From Ignavibacteriota bacterium (GTDB lineage: Bacteria; Bacteroidota; Ignavibacteria; UBA10030; UBA6906), in assembly GCA_016218065.1 (NCBI GenBank), contig JACRFA010000113.1, positions 6,458 to 70,457 on the forward strand: a DNA stretch of 64,000 nucleotides, given 5' to 3'. The notes beneath the pieces were generated by a model. It saw only the letters and a list, made by a program, of their open reading frames with translations, ran no database searches and was not told the DNA's origin. The translations under genes were made by a program, and so were the position numbers. Shown here piece by piece: positions 24,179 through 39,088 of this stretch. Each line of letters opens with the position of its first letter. Within the stretch, counting starts at the first letter, position 1.

Positions 24179-24345
24179 ACCCCGCTTCCGACGGCACCAC
24201 TTTGATTTCAACGCGTCGGTTGAGCGCCTGATTCACATGCGCAACACGCTCCAGCGTCGCATCGACACCCGGATCATAGAGTTTCTTTTCGATGACATTC
24301 CCGAATTCATCACGCGCAGATTTGTGCAGGTGTGGCATTAGTATT
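24179..24345 (-). pseudogene. decayed fragment of the OmpA-like C-terminal region of the ABC substrate-binding protein gene
   Basis: ORF 24069-24359 reads ...ARDEFGNVIEKKLYDPGVDATLERVAHVNQALNRRVEIKVVPSEAGW... The intact gene reads ...ARDEFGNIIEKKLYDPGVDATLERVARV[~70 aa]NQALNRRVEIKVVPPEAG*. The fragment therefore has an internal in-frame deletion, lacks the 5' part, and has its stop codon changed to TGG. Confidence 0.8.
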
Positions 24346-25571: not shown

Positions 25572-25727
25572 TATAAACGTCTCGGCAAACAACGCCGCCG
25601 TTTTGCGAACTATTCAACGACAAATTCTCCGTGAGCAAAAACGGTGGAACGAGCACAACTGATCTTTTTATCGAGCTTCAACGTAACCATATCAAATGAG
25701 CGAGTGTCGTTGTTTGCTGTGTTAGCT
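25572..25727 (+). repeat. attC-like imperfect palindrome, copy a
   Basis: TATAAAC-gtctcg-GCAAACAACG ... CGTTGTTTGC-tgt-GTTAGCT. It has an inner stem CCGCCGTTTTGC/GCAAAAACGGTGG and a conserved core GAGCACAACTGA...TGAGCGAGTGTCG shared with copies b-d. Confidence 0.6.
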
Positions 25728-25850
25728 GCAGTGCACGGGCTGGCTCGAGCTCCGTGAAGTACCACCGACCAGGGTGTGGTTAATGCATCTTGACTGTCAT
25801 TGGAATTGAACCGCCTCAACTGCCAGAGAATTATACGGAAAATCGTATCA

Positions 25851-31007: not shown

Positions 31008-31094
31008 TTACCCAGCTTCCTGCGACACGACTTTGATTTCGACGCGACGGTTCGGCGCTTGATTCTGCGGGTCGTGGTCGGCTTGGACGAATGG
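31008..31094 (-). pseudogene. orphan 3'-terminal fragment of an OmpA-like domain gene
   Basis: Own translation of the minus strand: PFVQADHDPQNQAPNRRVEIKVVSQEAG followed by TAA. This is homologous to the last ~28 codons of 37376-39088. There is no upstream coding continuation, because the RibD_C-like ORF stop lies at 31095. Confidence 0.65.
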
Positions 31095-31836: not shown

Positions 31837-31982
31837 CTGCTAACGTGTGCACAAACCACGCCGTGCCGCACTCCATGCTTTTCTACCAAATGAGTGCGGC
31901 ATGGAACGAGCACAACTGAGTTTGAACTGAGCTTCAACATTGCCTTTCAAATGAGCGAGTGTCGTGGTTTGTGCTGTCAGGC
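31837..31982 (+). repeat. attC-like imperfect palindrome, copy b
   Basis: CTGCTAAC-gtgt-GCACAAACCACG ... CGTGGTTTGTGC-t-GTCAGGC, with perfect 12-bp inner boxes at 31849-31860 / 31963-31974. Inner 12/13 stem CCGTGCCGCACTC/GAGTGCGGCATGG; conserved core GAGCACAACTGA...TGAGCGAGTGTCG. Confidence 0.6.
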
Positions 31983-31995
31983 GAAGTGCGAAAAG

Positions 31996-33072
31996 TCACT
32001 TCAACTGTTGTCCCCTTCCTATGCTTGCTGATACACTTCCAAACGAGCCCTCTGCGAGCGCTGATAACAATGAAATCTCACCAGCAAGGCAGACGGATGC
32101 AACAATTTCACCTAACCGAGACACAGCATATCCTCGTCTAGTTTCATCTGGGTTGCACCCCAATCGATCTAGATTCTCTCTGCAAGGCTTGTAGTCAGTG
32201 CCGCCGCCAACGACGCCAAGTTCCATACACGGTAAAGTTAGCACGAATCGTACTCCCTCGTCGACACGGCTGCCAACTAGCGTTGCACTACTTGACTCGA
32301 CGATCTCAGCGACATCTTGACCAAAGGGGATAAACATCGCAGCTAACGAATTCGCAACATGTGCGTTTTGATGATAAGGAGCGCCCGCAAGGCTTGAGCC
32401 CAATTGTAGCTTGGCCACAGCCAGATCCAAAAGTGGTTCAACACCAACATGAAGCACATGCTTCAGGATGTCGGAAGTGAGGATGACTTCTGCAATAACA
32501 CCCAAACCTCTGCCATCCAAGACGTTGATAGCAGCAGGCTTCTTGTCAGAACACAGGTTTCCAGAAACCCCCAGACATTTTGTTTGGGTCACCTTGCACA
32601 CACGACGCACGATTGAATCTGAAAGTATCGTGACTGCATTGCCCCCTAGCGCATCGCCGACATCAAAGCGTAGCCTAAGATAAATGTACTGTCCAAGAAT
32701 GTATGGTCTTGATTCGATTAGCCTGACATGCTTGCTCTGTCCCTCTGGCCATTCGTTGATTTCCAACTGAATCTCCTGCAGTTTCCGAAAAGCCCTGACG
32801 GCATCCTTGACGTTCGTTGCGGCGAATACTGGCGCCCGCGTCATGGACTTGCGATAAACACAAGTTGTAGAACCGCCAGAGAGGGTTATAGCCTTGCAGC
32901 CGCGGTTGATCCCTGCAACCAAGCCTCGTTCGGTCGTAGCCAGTGGTACCTCTACTGTCGCATCGATATTTTCCCCGTGAATAACAATGGGTGATGAAAG
33001 AGAATACGGTACAGGATGAACGCCCTTTTGGCGCTCAATGAACGATTGTATTCTTCTGCTTCGTATTGTCAT
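31996..33072 (-). CDS. HMG-CoA reductase class-I homologue (short form, atypical C-terminus)
   Basis: By-eye alignment to the class-I catalytic domain: [21 protein letters not shown] (cf. [20 protein letters not shown]), GDALGGN (GDAMGMN), [20 protein letters not shown] ([20 protein letters not shown]), [18 protein letters not shown] (NAHAANIVTAIYIACGQD), GVVGGGT. The start is set at the ATG at 33072, which forms an ATGA overlap with the kinase stop; the ORF track start is 33111. Confidence 0.75.
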   Translation of the reverse strand: [358 protein letters not shown]

Positions 33073-33944
33073 GTCCAGAGACCTTGCTTCATCTCCACTG
33101 GATTTGCCCATCTAGCATTAGGGTCAGGCATTATTGCTTTGCATAGTACTGTCGGCAACGAACAAGATGGCGCGAATTGCCTTAGTTGGTTACTCAACCC
33201 ATCGAAATCCACCGAGTACCTTGCCGCGACAGGATCGTCTGAACTCAGCACGAATTCGGGCAATGATCCTGTAAGTAGTTGTATTCCGACTATCCCGAGC
33301 GAGTACAAATCTGCACGGATGTCAACATCTCCAGCATGACAAAATTGTTCAGGGGCCATGTATGGTATTGTTCCAGCCCAGTAGGCAGGTCGATGCTCAA
33401 GATGCGCCCCGAATTTTGCTAGGCCAAAATCAGCAACTAGGTAGACTTTTCGGCTATCATCAATAAGGATGTTATCTGGTTTGAGATCCCTATGCACGAT
33501 CTCATTATCCCACAAGTGACCAAGCGCAGACAGCAACTGACTTAGGACTATTCTGACTTCAGAGGAATCGAATCGCTCGGTTTGGCGCAGTACCGATGAC
33601 AATGAACCTCCTTCCACCCAGTCCATTGTGAAATATGAAAATCCTGATTTTGTCCCAGAGTCGTGGACGCGAACAATGTTTTTATGTCTGAGCCTAGCAA
33701 GTAGCTCGAATTCGCGTTCAAACCTGATCCGCGCGTCATTGTCAGGCACGAACTCTGACTTCAAAATCTTCAGTGCGAAGTAATCTCCATCGCGCAGATT
33801 TGAGACTTTGTAAACCGCCCCAAATGTTCCTTGTCCAACGAAATCTAGGACTCTGTACAAATCCTGAAAAGCTATCATGACTGAACGCACCAGAACATGA
33901 TGGTTTCCTCTCGTAACCATTACTGTAACATCACTTGCGCTCAT
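33069..33944 (-). CDS. Hanks-type Ser/Thr protein kinase, stand-alone catalytic domain
   Basis: GQGTFGAVYKV (Gly loop), FALKILK (catalytic Lys), HRDLKPDNILID, DFGLAKF, YMAPEQ. ATGA overlap with the upstream permease-like gene. Confidence 0.88.
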   Translation of the reverse strand: MSASDVTVMVTRGNHHVLVRSVMIAFQDLYRVLDFVGQGTFGAVYKVSNLRDGDYFALKILKSEFVPDNDARIRFEREFELLARLRHKNIVRVHDSGTKSGFSYFTMDWVEGGSLSSVLRQTERFDSSEVRIVLSQLLSALGHLWDNEIVHRDLKPDNILIDDSRKVYLVADFGLAKFGAHLEHRPAYWAGTIPYMAPEQFCHAGDVDIRADLYSLGIVGIQLLTGSLPEFVLSSDDPVAARYSVDFDGLSNQLRQFAPSCSLPTVLCKAIMPDPNARWANPVEMKQGLWT

Positions 33945-35326
33945 GGGGCAACTCCTATACCACGCAGAAAGTCTCCGACGGCCGGTATTATCTTGCCTGT
34001 AACTGCTGCTGATGCATAAAAAGACATGTAGAGCACGCCGAGTTCGACGCGAAGAAACCTGTTCATGAACCCGGCCAGAAGAGCCATCGCGAATGTTGCC
34101 AAGATACCTACCACACCAGCCTCATTGTAAGCCAGTACAATCGCTAAACCAACAAATGCGCTTATCAATGTTTCCATGGAGATGAAGCGCAACGTCCACG
34201 TGCACCAAGTCCTCGCCCTTCTAAACGCGAGAAAATAGGAAATTGAAATCCCTACGAGGGCGCCAAGAACGGAGAACATGGCAATTGCATTTGTTGAGAG
34301 AAGTGTATGAATGTTGTTCACAGGCTCTATTGTGAACCTCGGGGGAGCATTAAAAAGGGGAGCTGCTGGCCCAAGAGCCATTGGACTAAGCGGCAGCCCA
34401 ACTGCTATCAGAGGAATGAGCGTTTCGGCTATGTACGTCGAGTTATTAACTGCGTCCATGGCTACAATCTTATCGAGCAACCTCTTCAGTGCCGAACCTC
34501 TGATTTTTTCTGCAAGTCCCCCCACAAGCACCGTCATACCAACAGGGCTCAAAACAAAGAAGAAGCTCGTGATAGCCGCGGCAACTGAAGTCAGACCTAA
34601 CTGCCTTCGACCTAGAACGCGCATAGGATTCATACTTTGGAGCTCAGTCCCCTCTCGAACAATATTTACAGATGAAGCGCTGTTGCTACGAAGTGATCGT
34701 GATACCGGCGGCGAGAGAAGAACGAAAATGTCTATTATCATCGGCCCGAGGGCAATGCCCATGAAGAAAGAGATGAACATTGAATGACCCACAAGCTTAG
34801 ACGACAACTCCTGTGTTGCTCCAATAAAGGTTGCAAACGGAAGAACAGCGAGAACCGCCGCCCACCTAGCTTTGGAGAAGAGTGCGATTAGCAATGCCCC
34901 CAGAAGGAATGCCCATGGCGCATAACTCCGAATCACATTCCCGAACGGTTGAAGAATGCTACCGAAGACCAGTGCAATTGGTAAAGCAATGACAACACCA
35001 ACTACGGATGCAGCAAGCATCTTCCGTAGCAAGATGTGCGGTATGCCGTATCGTCTCCCGACCTCGCAGGCATCGAGGAACGGGACAGTCATCGTGCTAC
35101 CGGGAATGATCGCGATGGCCGACGGTACTGAATTTGAAGTTTCCATTGCAGCGATTGCTGCCATGAAGAAGCAAAGGATGACCTCTGGTGGGATATTTGC
35201 CAAGACAAGCAAAAGAATAATTGGAGCAATGCTCGCAGTCTCGTCAGTGCCGGGAATTAGACCGATGATAAAATAGAGTAACGACGCCACTACTGCGGCC
35301 AAGAGCGCGAAGACAATGAGTTCCAT
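33941..35326 (-). CDS. polytopic membrane protein, TctA/DUF112-like (tentative)
   Basis: 461 aa with at least 10 hydrophobic helices. The motifs IGLIPGTDETASIAPIILLLV and AIAIIPGSTMTVPFLDA resemble the repeated G-x-(L/I)-PG motifs of TctA large subunits. Assignment is from memory of the family, not a search. Confidence 0.5.
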   Translation of the reverse strand: MELIVFALLAAVVASLLYFIIGLIPGTDETASIAPIILLLVLANIPPEVILCFFMAAIAAMETSNSVPSAIAIIPGSTMTVPFLDACEVGRRYGIPHILLRKMLAASVVGVVIALPIALVFGSILQPFGNVIRSYAPWAFLLGALLIALFSKARWAAVLAVLPFATFIGATQELSSKLVGHSMFISFFMGIALGPMIIDIFVLLSPPVSRSLRSNSASSVNIVREGTELQSMNPMRVLGRRQLGLTSVAAAITSFFFVLSPVGMTVLVGGLAEKIRGSALKRLLDKIVAMDAVNNSTYIAETLIPLIAVGLPLSPMALGPAAPLFNAPPRFTIEPVNNIHTLLSTNAIAMFSVLGALVGISISYFLAFRRARTWCTWTLRFISMETLISAFVGLAIVLAYNEAGVVGILATFAMALLAGFMNRFLRVELGVLYMSFYASAAVTGKIIPAVGDFLRGIGVAP

Positions 35327-35327
35327 A

Positions 35328-35762
35328 TCAGATCGTCCTTTCTGCTTCTGATGAAGCTGCGTCAGCTAGTGCTATCTGGGCCAACTGCTCGGAAATGCCG
35401 GCATGCTCGGCTATGTAAAGGACATCTACAGGTCCACCCTTTAGATTCTTTAGCTCGCTGGAGGCATCCGTATCGAATGCAGCAAGAACGTTGCGTAGAT
35501 CGGAACTAGAAGGAACATCTTCATTTACTTCGCGGTGAGTGCCGAAACGACGATTTATCATGAATGAAAATGCGAGGATTGTGATAAGGGCAAGTCCTAG
35601 TGCTGTGGCTACTCTAGTTTGGGGAGTGAATTCAAGTAAAGCCCCAAGTTTGAGCACACCACCGTAGACAACTAGGCCAAAAAACGCAGTTAGAGTGATT
35701 CCGATGCCAAGCGAACGACCGTTTACAGTCTCCTGCATTACTTTGTAAGTCCTTCCTTTCAT
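35328..35762 (-). CDS. small membrane protein (two TM helices plus a soluble acidic tail), first gene of the four-gene operon
   Basis: 144 aa. TM segments are LGIGITLTAFFGLVVYGGVL and VATALGLALITILAFSFMI. Its stop lies 1 nt before the next ATG. No family recognised; it may play a TctB-like role. Confidence 0.5.
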   Translation of the reverse strand: MKGRTYKVMQETVNGRSLGIGITLTAFFGLVVYGGVLKLGALLEFTPQTRVATALGLALITILAFSFMINRRFGTHREVNEDVPSSSDLRNVLAAFDTDASSELKNLKGGPVDVLYIAEHAGISEQLAQIALADAASSEAERTI

Positions 35763-35920: not shown

Positions 35921-36124
35921 GCTAACGTCTTCGCAAACTACGTCCTCGCTTTTTCATAACCGAGTGAGGCGTGGAGTGAACACAACTACACTGAGCGAGC
36001 GTCGGCCTGCCCGCCATGCTTCACCTTTTGGCGGGCATGTGTGCGAGCCTTACCAAATTCGCTTTCTGAATCCCGATGTTTCTCATCGGGATGTGTGAAC
36101 GCCGATGCTTGCATTTGTAATGTG
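35921..36124 (+). repeat. attC-like imperfect palindrome, copy c (expanded, right arm decayed)
   Basis: GCTAAC-gtcttcgc-AAACTACG ... CGATGCTT-gcattt-GTAATGTG. It is collinear with copy d apart from two inserted hairpins (GCCCGCC/GGCGGGC at 36009-36036; CCCGATG/CATCGGG at 36072-36090). Confidence 0.55.
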
Positions 36125-36170: not shown

Positions 36171-36947
36171 TCATCGTGATTGGACTGGGTTTGTTTCCAT
36201 TGTACAAAGCCTGACAAACTTGACACCAAGTTCAGTCATGAGAATAGACCTTGGCTCAGACACATTGACATCGACATCGAATTCGCTTCCATCGTAATCG
36301 CGAGTATGCATATGGCTCCTCGACGGAGATACGTCAACTTCCACATCCGGAACATCCCATTTGATGGTGCCGAGAGCTAACAGACTGGAAATGAAAGCAT
36401 TCAGACTCTCTTCCGCGTGACCTGTACTTGTTTGGATGTCAATGATTCGTAAGGAGAATGTGGTGAGCTTAGTTTCGTCGCGTTTCCTTTCTCCTGAATA
36501 CTTCTCATCGTAAGACTGCCGCTTCTTTTCAAGCGCCTTGAATATGGACTCGAGTAGTTGAGCTTCGGCTGCCGTGATAGTTTTCAATATTTCGATGGCA
36601 TTCTGTTCGAGGAGTACTCTACTGTCCGTTGTCACAATATTTGCGATGAGCCGAGCCCATTTGTCTTGAAGATACTCGTCTTCTTCCAATGAACTGTACT
36701 CGATGAGCGGCGCCAATGTTCTAAGTGAGATTCTCTTTGGGTCAAGGTTATGCTTGCTAAGATATACCTGAGCACTAGAAAATATTTTTACTTGGTTCTT
36801 GAATCTCCGAAGCCTGACTTGGTCCGCGATTAAGCCGCTTGTTTCGTCAAGAGAGGGTCCAAAAAGTGCCTTGAGAAGAGCCTCGCTCTTGTCAAGCAGT
36901 TGTTTTGGGATATTGAGGCTATCGATTACTTTACCCAGGCTTTCCAT
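36171..36947 (-). CDS. Abi-alpha / DUF4393-family protein (abortive-infection-associated family)
   Basis: 258 aa. The pattern ...LKALFGPSLDETSGLIADQVRLRRFKN...LAPLIEYSSLEEDEYLQDKWARLIANIV... matches the Abi_alpha family hallmark (acidic stretch followed by LQxxWAxLLAN). Assignment is from memory of the family. Confidence 0.65.
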   Translation of the reverse strand: MESLGKVIDSLNIPKQLLDKSEALLKALFGPSLDETSGLIADQVRLRRFKNQVKIFSSAQVYLSKHNLDPKRISLRTLAPLIEYSSLEEDEYLQDKWARLIANIVTTDSRVLLEQNAIEILKTITAAEAQLLESIFKALEKKRQSYDEKYSGERKRDETKLTTFSLRIIDIQTSTGHAEESLNAFISSLLALGTIKWDVPDVEVDVSPSRSHMHTRDYDGSEFDVDVNVSEPRSILMTELGVKFVRLCTMETNPVQSR

Positions 36948-36994: not shown

Positions 36995-37146
36995 CACATA
37001 ACGTCTTCGCAAACTACGCCACGCCGAAATCCTCGCTTTTTACAACTGAGTGAGGCGTGGAGTGAAGACAACTAAAGTGAGCGAGCGTCGGCTTGTGTGC
37101 GAGCTTTACCAAATGTGTGAACGCCGTAGTTTGACGTTGTTATGTG
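36995..37146 (+). repeat. attC-like imperfect palindrome, copy d (best preserved)
   Basis: CACATAAC-gtcttcgc-AAACTACG (36995-37018) ... CGTAGTTT-gacgtt-GTTATGTG (37125-37146). The outer AAC/GTT triplets are intact, and the core GAAGACAACTA...GTGAGCGAGCGTCGGC is shared with copy c. Confidence 0.6.
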
Positions 37147-37375: not shown

Positions 37376-39088
37376 TTATCCCGCTTCCGGCGGCACCACT
37401 TTAATTTCCACGCGACGATTCAACGCCTGATTCATCGGATCGTCAGAGTTCGCAGGCTCGTCCCATGCTCGTCCTTCAATCACAAACTTGTTCGGATCGA
37501 ATTTGTATTTCTCAATCAGCGCCTTCTTCACGGCTGCGGCTCGATCGGTGCTGAGTTGCTTCACGGCATCGTAGGGAACTCTTCCCTTCATGGAATTATC
37601 CGTATGACCCTCCACGATGATCACGCATTTTTCAAACTGACCGGCAACACGCGCAACACGCTCCAGCGTTGCATCCACGCCCGGATCATAGAGTTTCTTT
37701 TCGATGATATTCCCGAATTCATCGCGCGCTGCTTCGTGCAAGTTTGCACTGTTCGGATAGAAGTTGATTCTGATCGTCTGCGTGAGAATCGGAGACTCGG
37801 CGCTGACTTTTTCGTACGATTGCGGCGTGAAGGACGTCCCGCTTTCGTACTTCTGATGCGCGAATGTTCCCTTCGCCTGCAGGTCTTTGATGAACGAAAA
37901 GTCCATCACGCGATCGAATTCCACCGGCGCGTCGATGCGGCCAAGTTCGCGATACACAAGCGATGCGCTCTTCCACGAGCGCTCGAAGTTGGTCGGGTTG
38001 CTTTGATTCAGGAAGAACTGCACGTTCTCGCCGAAGTTCGTCGAGTGCGCGTCGCCCATCATGCCTTTGATGTCCTCCGGCTTCATGCCGAATGCATCCG
38101 CCATCCATTGCGCGGCCTGTTCCGCATTTTGCTTGACGTAATCCATTCCTTCAAACACACCGGCGACAAATCCTTTGACGATGTCCGGATGGTCGCGGGC
38201 AAAATCGGCGCGAAACGCGTACACGTCAGCGATGACTTTGTTCGCTTCCGCCGTTGTGCTGAGAATTCGCGTTTTGGGCAATCGCTTTGGAATATTGTAA
38301 ATGTCCGGCGCCCAGCTCACGACCGCATCGATCTTCCGGTCGGCAACAAAAGCGGCGGCGGCTTCAAACGCAGTCGTCGTATATTTCATCTTCACATCGC
38401 CAACATTCAACCCGGCGCTCAGCAACAGCGTGGTGATGAAGTACTCGCTCGGGCTATTCTGCGCGCACACTATGGTTTTCCCTTTGAGGTCGCGCACCGT
38501 TTTGATTGCGTCACGTGACACAATCCCATCGCCTCCGCTTGACCAATCGATTTGCTGCACGATGCGCGGCGCCGTTCTACTGTCGCGCATCAACTCCGGT
38601 GCAAACAGCACCATCATATCTTCTGTACCCCACAACGCGTGAACGTTGCCCGATGTGTACGCGTCGCGTGCAGTGATCGGGTCGTCGATCAACACCATCT
38701 CCACCATGAATCCGTATTTCTTGTAGAAGATCGATTCCTTGTTCGGCTTCGTGCCGTGGTTCGCCGCGATGATTGGCAGCCATCCAATCCAAACATTGTA
38801 GCTGAACTTGACCGTCTTGTCTTTCCATGCGTAGCTGCTCACGCCTTTTACCGGCGGCAGCTTGTCCGCGGGAATGTACTTGTACTCCTTCACCGTCGTC
38901 ACGTTCGTGAGGTCTGTCGCTTCGACTTCGCTCTCCGTGTCCGTCGATGATGTTCCGAACGGCAACTTGGCTCCATCCTTCCCCATCAAGAGCCACACAC
39001 CCAACCCGATGAGTCCAAGGACGAGAATGATGGAAATGAAAATGCCGAACGGCGTAAGTTTCGCTCGTGAACCTTGTTCGTCTGCCAT
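37376..39088 (-). CDS. membrane-anchored NitT/TauT (NMT1/SsuA-like) substrate-binding protein fused to a C-terminal OmpA-like domain
   Basis: 570 aa. An N-terminal TM anchor (FGIFISIILVLGLIGLGVWLL) is followed by a periplasmic binding-protein fold (VWIGWLPIIAANHG ... GKTIVCAQNSPSEYF). The C-terminal OmpA-like module reads IIVEGHTDNS...LSTDRAAAVKKAL...NRRVEIKV. Confidence 0.8.
   Translation of the reverse strand: MADEQGSRAKLTPFGIFISIILVLGLIGLGVWLLMGKDGAKLPFGTSSTDTESEVEATDLTNVTTVKEYKYIPADKLPPVKGVSSYAWKDKTVKFSYNVWIGWLPIIAANHGTKPNKESIFYKKYGFMVEMVLIDDPITARDAYTSGNVHALWGTEDMMVLFAPELMRDSRTAPRIVQQIDWSSGGDGIVSRDAIKTVRDLKGKTIVCAQNSPSEYFITTLLLSAGLNVGDVKMKYTTTAFEAAAAFVADRKIDAVVSWAPDIYNIPKRLPKTRILSTTAEANKVIADVYAFRADFARDHPDIVKGFVAGVFEGMDYVKQNAEQAAQWMADAFGMKPEDIKGMMGDAHSTNFGENVQFFLNQSNPTNFERSWKSASLVYRELGRIDAPVEFDRVMDFSFIKDLQAKGTFAHQKYESGTSFTPQSYEKVSAESPILTQTIRINFYPNSANLHEAARDEFGNIIEKKLYDPGVDATLERVARVAGQFEKCVIIVEGHTDNSMKGRVPYDAVKQLSTDRAAAVKKALIEKYKFDPNKFVIEGRAWDEPANSDDPMNQALNRRVEIKVVPPEAG

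Follow-up and report, generated by a model that had tools for sequence, protein, structure and literature searches.

HMG-CoA reductase (HMGR) is among the best-studied enzymes, and a gene in a contig from an Ignavibacteriota bacterium raises the question of what a member of this family does when it has no catalytic flap histidine and is encoded directly beside a Ser/Thr protein kinase. The gene lies in a stretch of 64,000 nucleotides, referred to here as the window, and closes a four-gene operon on the reverse strand. The features of this region are as follows.

31841–31989, no strand assigned: repeat element b, an imperfect palindrome with outer arms CACAAACCACG / CGTGGTTTGTG that forms the 3' border of the operon (DNA fold z −3.4)
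31996–33072, reverse strand: HMGR-like gene (358 aa, P0007), class-I fold without the N-domain and without the catalytic His
32029–32031, reverse strand: codon for Ser348, aligned with human catalytic His866
33069–33944, reverse strand: bare Hanks-type Ser/Thr protein kinase (291 aa, P0002)
33941–35326, reverse strand: TctA-like permease, large subunit (461 aa, P0003)
35328–35762, reverse strand: small permease subunit (144 aa, P0004), two TM helices and a cytoplasmic helical tail
35923–36124, no strand assigned: repeat element c, of the same family as element b, forming the 5' border between the operon and the Abi_alpha gene
36171–36947: Abi_alpha gene, the neighbour of the operon beyond element c
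33111: alternative upstream ATG of the HMGR-like gene (371 aa, P0001)

Organisation of the operon

The genes are arranged in the order small membrane subunit, TctA-like permease, kinase and HMGR-like gene, and abut or overlap one another. The ATG at 33072, which is also the start in the database gene call (P0007), overlaps the stop codon of the kinase gene as ATGA. The same four-gene order was found in three metagenome contigs (L001, L003 and L004), where the proteins are 50–59% identical. Translational coupling of the reductase homologue to a kinase, as proposed in the original prediction, is therefore upheld and extends beyond the window. A promoter/terminator scan performed no better than on shuffled sequences.

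Fold and relatives of the HMGR-like protein

The HMGR-like protein matches Pfam PF00368 (E 9.1e-84), and a sequence search of the PDB returned the archaeal 6hr7 (E 4e-62) and human 1dq8 (E 3e-52) structures. The AF2 model (pLDDT 89.9), superposed on 6hr7 and 1hwi with Foldseek, gave TM scores of 0.87–0.89 and an rmsd of 1.6–2.3 Å, and this structural comparison confirmed the fold. The L- and S-domains are thus those of class-I HMGR (EC 1.1.1.34; Methanothermococcus thermolithotrophicus 6HR7 and human 1DQ8/1DQA), with 33–37% sequence identity. However, in line with the short N-terminus that had been noticed, an N-domain of ~65–80 residues is absent; the alignment with 6hr7 begins at residue 82 of 427, and the proteins of the clade have 358–366 aa, as compared with ~410–430 aa in canonical HMGR. 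The score against the NCBIfam equivalog TIGR00533 was 278.8 bits, far under the cut-off of 441.8 bits.

Only three relatives of the protein with >45% identity were found in a word-index search of 5.8e9 proteins, and an exhaustive profile search gave a single 50% cluster at 636 bits, the next score dropping to 365 bits. The clade thus comprises four genes in the protein collections searched, counting that of the window. It is tiny, and known here from sequences and predicted structure; this kinase-linked clade was recovered as monophyletic (SH-aLRT 96). The GTDB species genomes contained only canonical HMGRs (up to 41% identity), and matches in the plasmid collection reached 36% identity only.

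Active site and pockets

Residues of P0007 were mapped onto human HMGR using the pocket lists of an HMGR review (PMC7503714), and the clade was compared with the 264 other nearest class-I homologues; as the clade has four members only, its conservation statistics are thin. Glu48, Asp176-Lys177-Lys178, Asn241 and Asp253 align with human E559, D690-K692, N755 and D767, respectively, hence the Glu of TTE(G/R), the DKK triplet, the Asn of NAHxAN and the Asp of GQD had all been recognised correctly. Glu48, Lys177, Asn241 and Asp253 are invariant across the clade, and the cis-loop DKK and GGGT motifs of class-I HMGR are shared. The missing flap histidine was likewise borne out by a proper alignment, which places Ser348 opposite His866. 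In the three relatives the position is taken by Ser, Thr and Ser, whereas 254 of the 264 other homologues retain the His, which the review names as a key catalytic residue (PMC7503714). The flap His is treated as one of four such residues in HMGR.

In the HMG pocket, S684, D690, K691, K692, D767, E559, K735, N755 and L853 are kept and H866 is the sole loss. Human Lys735 corresponds to the conserved Lys221 of P0007, and the Lys missing from 'GRGK' to human Lys704, a residue without an assigned role. The NADPH pocket retains S626, D653, G656, N658, V805 and R871, while M655 and M657 are altered, the DAMGMN motif of class-I HMGR being DA(L/S/M)G(G/S)N in the clade. The CoA pocket is changed at S565 (to Gly/Ala), S865 (to Val/Ala) and H866 (to Ser/Thr), and Tyr479 is gone along with the N-domain, leaving three of the seven listed residues, namely N567, R568 and a basic residue at K722. 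Apart from His866 the HMG/mevalonate pocket is thus intact, and the losses concern the CoA-specific contacts, a pattern that the original prediction missed.

The clade has also gained residues. Arg49, directly after the catalytic Glu, is invariant in its members, and the position is occupied by Gly or Ala in 255 of the 264 other homologues and by Arg in none. His234, before the NAH motif, is invariant as well, replacing a Gly present in 221 of the 264. Both residues lie near the active site. These invariant gains point to remodelling rather than decay, and the comparison supports the assignment of the protein as a remodelled or repurposed, non-canonical class-I HMGR homologue.

Two details had to be revised. 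The ENVIG-type strand, described as not evident, is present though diverged (FIERQKG aligns with ENVIG and its Glu is retained). The Ser-rich tail had been placed at the equivalent of human Ser872, the AMPK site; in the alignment, Gly354 stands opposite Ser872 and Arg353 opposite Arg871, and the Ser-rich stretch spans human positions 861–868.

The permease and its genomic partners

The strongest functional clue for the HMGR-like protein is provided by the permease genes, which the original prediction missed. P0003 matches Pfam TctA (E 9e-17) and is 38–76% identical to members of a permease family; no other gene of the operon is as well conserved as the permease (76% and 57% identity). P0004 has homologues in the other module types, where they likewise precede a TctA-like gene. 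In TctCBA systems (TTT family), a large subunit with a Pfam TctA match is also preceded by a small membrane subunit. However, the system in the window has no TctC binding protein, its small subunit consists of two TM helices with a soluble tail and has no TctB match, and the family is tied to HMGR genes and not to citrate or tricarboxylate use.

Among 80 metagenome loci encoding permease relatives at 38–48% identity, an HMGR gene lies ≤2.5 kb from the permease in 61, and HMGR is missing from 4 of the 65 loci with enough flank. An HMG-CoA lyase gene is also present at 25 loci and AtuA at 23; in Lysinibacillus (L029) the order is HMGR-small-TctA-HMGL. These usual partners suggest mevalonate uptake, and the gene neighbourhoods thus suggest that the permease pair is a candidate mevalonate importer. 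The literature search found no published gene for a bacterial mevalonate transporter, and no relevant paper on mevalonate catabolism with a transporter or on mevalonate with TctA.

The operon shares the two-subunit permease family (38–48% identity) and an adjoining HMGR-family gene with mevalonate-catabolic modules, which follow the Pseudomonas mevalonii mvaA/mvaB logic and occur as HMGR-small-TctA(-HMGL/AtuA) in metagenomes and Lysinibacillus. Those modules encode a full-length class-II-like HMGR with the His, together with a lyase or AtuA, whereas the operon in the window has a His-less form derived from class I, an inserted Hanks kinase and no lyase gene.

Host metabolism and a CoA-dependent activity

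In the host genome (97.5% complete), the window gene is the sole HMGR match. A PF01154 search found no HMG-CoA synthase and no protein exceeded the TIGR00549 cut-off for mevalonate kinase, while DXR is present; unlike the usual setting of class-I HMGR, the host has no mevalonate pathway. An HMG-CoA lyase homologue is encoded on another contig (36% identity, E 3.5e-54).

The lyase gene bears on the reading in which the protein is a working CoA-dependent HMG-CoA reductase/mevalonate dehydrogenase, another residue such as His234 replacing the flap His. The operon would then import mevalonate and oxidise it to HMG-CoA, which the lyase of the host would split. Consistent with this are the invariance of all hydride-transfer and HMG-pocket residues, the persistence of N567, R568 and the basic residue at K722, and the typical occurrence of the permease family in mevalonate-catabolic operons. 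A CoA substrate is also still conceivable because a His-less cousin (P0253, locus L027) is encoded directly before an HMG-CoA synthase-like gene. The reading is nevertheless considered unlikely, given that the missing His is so widely kept among the nearest homologues, that S565, S865 and the Tyr479-bearing N-domain were lost with it, that the equivalog score is low, and that the operon includes neither a lyase nor an AtuA gene.

The kinase

P0002 contains the G-loop, the VAIK Lys, and the HRD, DFG, GT..YMAPE and DxYSxG motifs, and consists of the catalytic domain alone, without a sensor domain. It matches the PADLOC PD-T4-6 profile PDLC04042 (E 5.5e-57) and, about equally, the PknB model (E 4.4e-52), and its closest kinases outside the clade are ordinary Hanks kinases (34–44% identity). 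A role as a small-molecule, acyl-phosphate-forming kinase is unlikely because of the full activation segment, the P+1 loop (GT..YMAPE) and DxYSxG. Prediction of a complex between the kinase and the HMGR-like protein (alignments A4 and A2) gave a score of 0.00, which counts neither way on binding.

The control of eukaryotic HMGR by AMPK also involves a Ser/Thr kinase, and here such a kinase is tied genetically to an HMGR-family protein with a Ser/Thr-rich C-terminal flap. However, the window protein has Gly354 at the position of Ser872, the conserved hydroxyl residue lies at the His866 position itself, and the kinase is of the bacterial Hanks type, with a regulation unrelated to that of AMPK. 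Thus, of the kinase-controlled, repurposed enzyme proposed originally, the remodelled homologue and the genetic linkage to the kinase hold, and the specific analogy with AMPK is weak.

With no sensor domain of its own and translational coupling to the HMGR-like gene, the kinase could be served by a protein without turnover that senses mevalonate or NAD(P)H, the two forming a mevalonate-responsive signalling cassette. In a variant that follows the original model, the kinase would gate the protein by phosphorylating its Ser/Thr-rich flap, the Ser/Thr opposite His866 included. An intact ligand pocket, the missing leaving-group machinery and the hydroxyl residue that all four members have precisely where the His belongs are in keeping with this, but Glu, Lys, Asp, Asn and GGGT do not vary at 50–59% identity, which suggests selection on catalysis, and the Ser872 equivalent is Gly; the sensing role is accordingly rated as rather improbable. 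A comparably low probability is given to the proposal that the Ser/Thr replacing the catalytic His is a phospho-acceptor written by the coupled kinase, making the protein, with the mevalonate importer, a mevalonate-responsive switch or a CoA-independent mevalonate oxidoreductase. If this were true, bacteria would have an independent counterpart of the control of HMGR by a kinase, and the fold would have a new chemistry.

Borders and distribution of the operon

The operon is absent from 40 of 40 relatives of the host, hence it is accessory, and it was probably acquired horizontally. It forms a low-GC stretch (0.49 versus 0.54–0.56), and the contigs that carry it are of very different GC, with an extremely patchy distribution. 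Four repeats of ~150–200 nt each, with compensating AAAC/GTTT outer arms and including elements b and c, delimit three units. In the rest of the genome one further match was found at up to 1 mismatch, and matches with 2 mismatches were about as frequent as in the control. No recombinase exceeded the TIGR02249 cut-off for integron integrase (the best gave 118 + 103 bits in two stretches, contig C263), no convincing attC-like palindromes were seen beside the operon in L001, L003 and L004, and Rfam had no match in the window.

Stk2 and PD-T4-6 kinases are thought to sense infection, and the operon might by analogy be an anti-phage or conflict cassette, in which the kinase would sense infection and the effectors would be the HMGR-like and membrane proteins, working for instance by cofactor depletion or membrane leakage. 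The Hanks domain with strong PADLOC profile matches and the island setting are common to both; the low GC, the small repeat family at the borders, the adjoining Abi_alpha gene, the absence from the 40 relatives and the patchy occurrence also speak for such a cassette. However, the PD-T4-6 match may be generic to Hanks kinases, and none of the HMGR-like, TctA-like and small proteins has a counterpart among the PADLOC profiles. In addition, the family of the permease pair is a component of metabolic operons, the pair includes the operon's most conserved gene, and no relatives were found among viral contigs. Defence is rated the least probable of the functions considered. The literature search found nothing relevant on HMGR with integrons, defence or kinases, nor on TctA with defence.

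Proposed function

The tentatively preferred reading, given a little less than an even chance, is that of a repurposed oxidoreductase with an eroded CoA pocket that acts on an imported mevalonate-type substrate, with the kinase as its partner. The protein would represent a very small subfamily of NAD(P)(H) oxidoreductases with the class-I HMGR fold that still binds a mevalonate- or HMG-type ligand and has lost the parts handling the CoA thioester (the catalytic His, Ser565, Ser865 and the Tyr479-bearing N-domain). As the first two genes of this putatively transferred, coupled operon encode the permease that elsewhere accompanies mevalonate-degrading HMGRs, the substrate would most likely be imported mevalonate or a close analogue. 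The chemistry would probably be CoA-independent or otherwise altered, for example interconversion of mevalonate and mevaldehyde or an oxidation that involves no thioester intermediate. The dedicated Hanks kinase would be a regulatory partner, either phosphorylating one of the operon's proteins or passing a signal onward. The analysis shows the fold, the residue pattern, the conservation of the operon, the linkage of permease and HMGR genes and the accessory status, whereas we infer the substrate, the altered chemistry, and the kinase's role and the direction in which it acts. Against the oxidoreductase reading, His234 could assume the role of proton donor, the three CoA-pocket residues persist, and a low-GC, repeat-bounded unit beside Abi_alpha also fits defence.

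On the gene content, the operon looks like a repurposed mevalonate-handling module. Loss of the His and the CoA contacts, together with the kept mevalonate pocket and the gained Arg and His, would suggest that the HMGR fold has a second chemistry or serves in sensing. The fixed kinase pairing would offer a simple bacterial system for kinase–HMGR coupling, and through its link with the HMGR-dedicated permease the operon provides one more, independent setting in which the candidate bacterial mevalonate transporter occurs.

A sister module

The HMGR-like gene of L019 is the sister of the kinase-linked clade (support 99). It adjoins the same permease and a mevalonate-kinase-like protein, and it also has Arg49, His234 and a Thr at the His position. 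A His-to-Thr replacement was seen as well in a full-length HMGR (P0254), encoded on a contig of only 2 kb. In the module type found at L019, L022, L026 and L030, the permease is accompanied by a cyclase-like/mevalonate-kinase-like fusion of ~700 aa and a short HMGR-like protein, and in some cases by an archaeal-type HMG-CoA synthase. Unlike in the clade, some members have the His, and HMG-CoA synthase is often present. The module shares with the operon in the window the permease, the HMGR-like lineage without the N-domain and a phosphotransferase gene in the neighbouring slot; however, its phosphotransferase is a relative of GHMP (small-molecule) kinases, whereas that in the window is a protein kinase.

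Gene organisation and conservation

The HMGR homologue P0007 is encoded in a set of four ORFs that are tightly packed head to tail on the minus strand:

35328-35762, minus strand: small membrane protein P0004, 144 aa
33941-35326, minus strand: TctA-like protein P0003, 461 aa
33069-33944, minus strand: kinase P0002, 291 aa
31996-33072, minus strand: HMGR homologue P0007, 358 aa

P0004 and P0003 are separated by a 1-nt gap. The P0003/P0002 and P0002/P0007 junctions are ATGA overlaps, the TGA stop of the kinase gene overlapping the ATG of the HMGR-like gene. An HMGR-like reading of 371 aa that starts at 33111 is improbable; both the database call and every relative begin just before the FIERQ motif. 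P0002 consists of a catalytic domain alone and has the complete set of Hanks motifs, including the protein-kinase activation segment and P+1 loop, and its nearest relatives outside the operon are ordinary kinases (34–44% identity).

A word-index search of 5.8 billion clusters revealed only three relatives of P0007 sharing >45% identity, namely P0008 (59%), P0009 (50%) and P0010 (50%), all of ~360 aa; the next tier comprised canonical enzymes (~425 aa, ~42% identity). When 1.84 billion representatives were searched exhaustively with a profile, one cluster scored 636 bits and the next 365 bits. The three relatives are located on metagenome contigs differing strongly in base composition, and all three contigs have the gene order small protein, TctA-like protein, Hanks kinase, HMGR-like protein. 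Across the operon copies, conservation is highest for the TctA-like protein (76% and 57% identity), compared with 56% and 28% for the kinase and 41% and 33% for the small protein. P0007 and its relatives form a very small HMGR subfamily that is remodelled and always partnered by the kinase and the permease. In one metagenome copy (L003:1129-3475), both the TctA-like gene and the kinase gene are divided over two frames, due to either assembly error or decay, and the HMGR-like gene is whole.

Residue map of the HMGR-like protein

P0007 matches Pfam PF00368 (E 9.1e-84), and the closest solved structures are archaeal 6hr7 (E 4e-62), plant HMG1 and human HMGR (E 3e-52). An AlphaFold2 model (mean pLDDT 89.9; input alignment of 51 sequences) superimposes on 6hr7 and the human structures with TM 0.87–0.89 and rmsd 1.6–2.3 Å. 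P0007 is firmly identified as a class-I HMGR catalytic portion.

Residues were mapped by HMMER alignment of P0007 to the human chain, calibrated on D767, and lists for the HMG, NADPH and CoA pockets were taken from a review (PMC7503714). The catalytic residues Glu559, Lys691 and Asp767 of the human enzyme are present as Glu48, Lys177 and Asp253, and the HMG pocket is intact at S684, D690, K692, K735, N755 and L853 (human numbering). The NADPH pocket is mostly retained, with Met655 and Met657 of DAMGMN altered. In the CoA pocket, Ser565 is replaced by Gly or Ala, Ser865 by Val or Ala, and His866 by Ser348 in P0007 (codon 32029-32031), and Tyr479 is missing together with the entire N-domain. Three positions of this pocket are conserved: Asn567, Arg568 and Lys722, the last as a basic residue.

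The absence of the catalytic flap His noted in the original prediction is therefore confirmed and placed at Ser348. The interpretation offered with it holds only in part. The ENVIG motif, described as not evident, exists as a diverged strand in which FIERQKG aligns to ENVIG, and the Ser-rich tail does not lie at the place of human Ser872, which aligns with Gly354; the Ser/Thr run occupies positions 861–868. What survives of the proposed kinase control is contained in a reading in which P0007 is a non-catalytic sensor or its flap is phosphorylated by the kinase, which we consider distinctly unlikely.

The His column contains Ser, Ser, Thr and Ser in the four clade proteins, and His is kept in 254 of 264 other nearest class-I homologues. 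Arg directly follows the catalytic Glu in all four, a position held by Gly or Ala in 255 of the 264 others and by Arg in none. All four also have His at human position 748 (His234 in P0007), where 221 of the 264 have Gly. Both gains are missing or very rare elsewhere. Since catalytic and ligand-pocket residues are invariant across 50–59% identity and are accompanied by lineage-specific gains, the active site looks remodelled rather than decayed. A full-length archaeal-type class-I HMGR of 417 aa (P0254, L111:209-1462) likewise carries Thr in place of the catalytic His.

Permease family and sister module

The permease is the key clue to the function of the operon. P0003 falls in a large TctA-like subfamily with members of ~455 aa, some of which share a locus with short class-I-like HMGRs (L019 and the Hodarchaeota MAG locus L022), AtuA and a long HMGR (L024, Planctomycetaceae), or lie in the order HMGR, small protein, TctA-like protein, HMG-CoA lyase (L029, Lysinibacillus). 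For a survey of this linkage, 80 metagenome loci were retrieved with a 20-sequence subfamily alignment, and their six-frame ORFs were scanned with purpose-built HMMs and reference proteins. HMGR was found ≤2.5 kb from the permease gene in 61 of the 80 loci and was absent in only 4 of the 65 having enough flank to judge. The commonest order was class-II-like HMGR, small subunit, TctA-like protein. HMG-CoA lyase was present in 25/80 loci and AtuA in 23/80, the latter beside HMGR and permease in the place of the lyase (L024, L038, L039, L046 and ~20 more). In L024, a small AtuA_ferredoxin gene accompanies AtuA. The small subunit is homologous in all module types and has two TM helices and a helical cytoplasmic tail.

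By their gene content, the HMGR-permease-lyase/AtuA modules would be mevalonate-catabolic units of the mvaA/mvaB type that bring their own uptake system. Hence, the permease is a candidate importer, the cargo of which is likely mevalonate or a very close hydroxy-acid. A literature search for such a mevalonate-type transporter found no paper.

In a maximum-likelihood tree (54 rows, 52 distinct, with P0251 and P0253 twice each; class II outgroup), the four kinase-linked HMGR-like proteins formed a single clade (SH-aLRT 96). Its sister (support 99) is the protein from L019, which shares Arg49 and His234, carries Thr in the His column and occurs with the same permease. The sister module, in which a ~700-aa protein neighbours a short HMGR-like protein, was found at:

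L019: 3301-8485
L022: 2862-10241
L026: 2-4245
L030: 1029-5105
L027 and L028: in part

It also carries the small subunit and TctA-like permease. The C-terminal two thirds of the ~700-aa protein best match mevalonate kinase (TIGR00549, E 1e-11 to 1e-16 in 4/4, below the cut-off), and its N-terminal 200 residues faintly resemble class-III nucleotide cyclases; the protein is a fusion, with a mevalonate-kinase-like GHMP domain as its C-terminal part. Both of these rare modules thus combine the permease, a phosphotransferase and an HMGR-like protein lacking the N-domain; the phosphotransferase is a Hanks kinase in one and GHMP-like in the other, and the two may be functional equivalents. The sister-module genes of L027 are followed by a gene for a 189-aa protein that matches PycTM weakly.

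The His column of the sister-module proteins has Thr, Thr, Thr, Val or His, and an archaeal-type HMG-CoA synthase is frequently the next gene. This proximity to His-less cousins, and the three CoA-pocket residues retained in P0007, favour an enzyme that is still CoA-dependent, with another residue such as His234 replacing the flap His; we regard this as unlikely. We tentatively prefer, at somewhat under even chances, an accessory module built around a mevalonate-type permease. Its HMGR-fold enzyme has retained the pocket for mevalonate/HMG and the residues for hydride transfer, as well as the site for the nicotinamide cofactor, and would have abandoned thioester leaving-group chemistry; because of this combination, it probably acts either CoA-independently or on some other activated form. 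The kinase P0002 would be its regulatory partner. The residue pattern, the conservation of the operon, the link between permease and HMGR and the accessory nature of the module are established by the analysis; the cargo, the chemistry and the part played by the kinase are inferred. The subfamily is of interest in two respects, the enzymology of HMGR and the candidate mevalonate transporter.

Host genome and island setting

The operon is accessory. The host genome (97.5% complete) gave no further HMGR match, no HMG-CoA synthase match and no mevalonate kinase above the cut-off; an HMG-CoA lyase homologue is present elsewhere in it. The presence of DXR points to the MEP route for host isoprenoids. 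Among 40 relatives (same genus, 11; same family, 13; same order, 16), none had any HMGR at E 1e-10 or better.

The operon lies in a ~13-kb stretch with a GC content of 0.49 versus 0.54–0.56 in the surroundings. Three 3'-end copies (80–89% identical) of the minus-strand gene 37376-39088 flank this stretch and break it up, which suggests repeated insertion at the end of this gene:

24181-24334: 3'-end copy
31012-31066: 3'-end copy
37380-37746: 3'-end copy

Four imperfect palindromes of ~150–200 nt partition the island into three units, one of which is exactly the operon:

25575-25734: palindrome
31841-31989: palindrome
35923-36124: palindrome
36999-37146: palindrome

Their compensating outer arms are GCAAAC-N-ACG and CGT-N-GTTTGC, with the variants AACAACG/CGTTGTT, AACCACG/CGTGGTT and AACTACG/CGTAGTT. 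The unit directly upstream of the operon contains a sole ORF between two repeats:

36171-36947, minus strand: Abi_alpha gene, 258 aa (PF14337, E 1.7e-18)

The island location and this neighbour would fit an anti-phage cassette, a reading made very doubtful by three points: the permease has a metabolic ancestry, three of the four operon proteins have no PADLOC match, and the PD-T4-6 match of the kinase appears generic.

The palindromes look similar to attC sites but are long. Elsewhere in the genome, there is one further match at ≤1 mismatch, and the number of matches with 2 mismatches is close to that of the control. As, in addition, no host recombinase scored above the integron-integrase cut-off (TIGR02249, 265 bits), the operon unit is termed cassette-like and not an integron cassette. 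A 344-aa tyrosine recombinase on a short contig of the host genome (C263:3127-3933) aligns to TIGR02249 over two separate segments (118 and 103 bits) with the IntI-specific insert region unaligned, and may be a diverged integron integrase.
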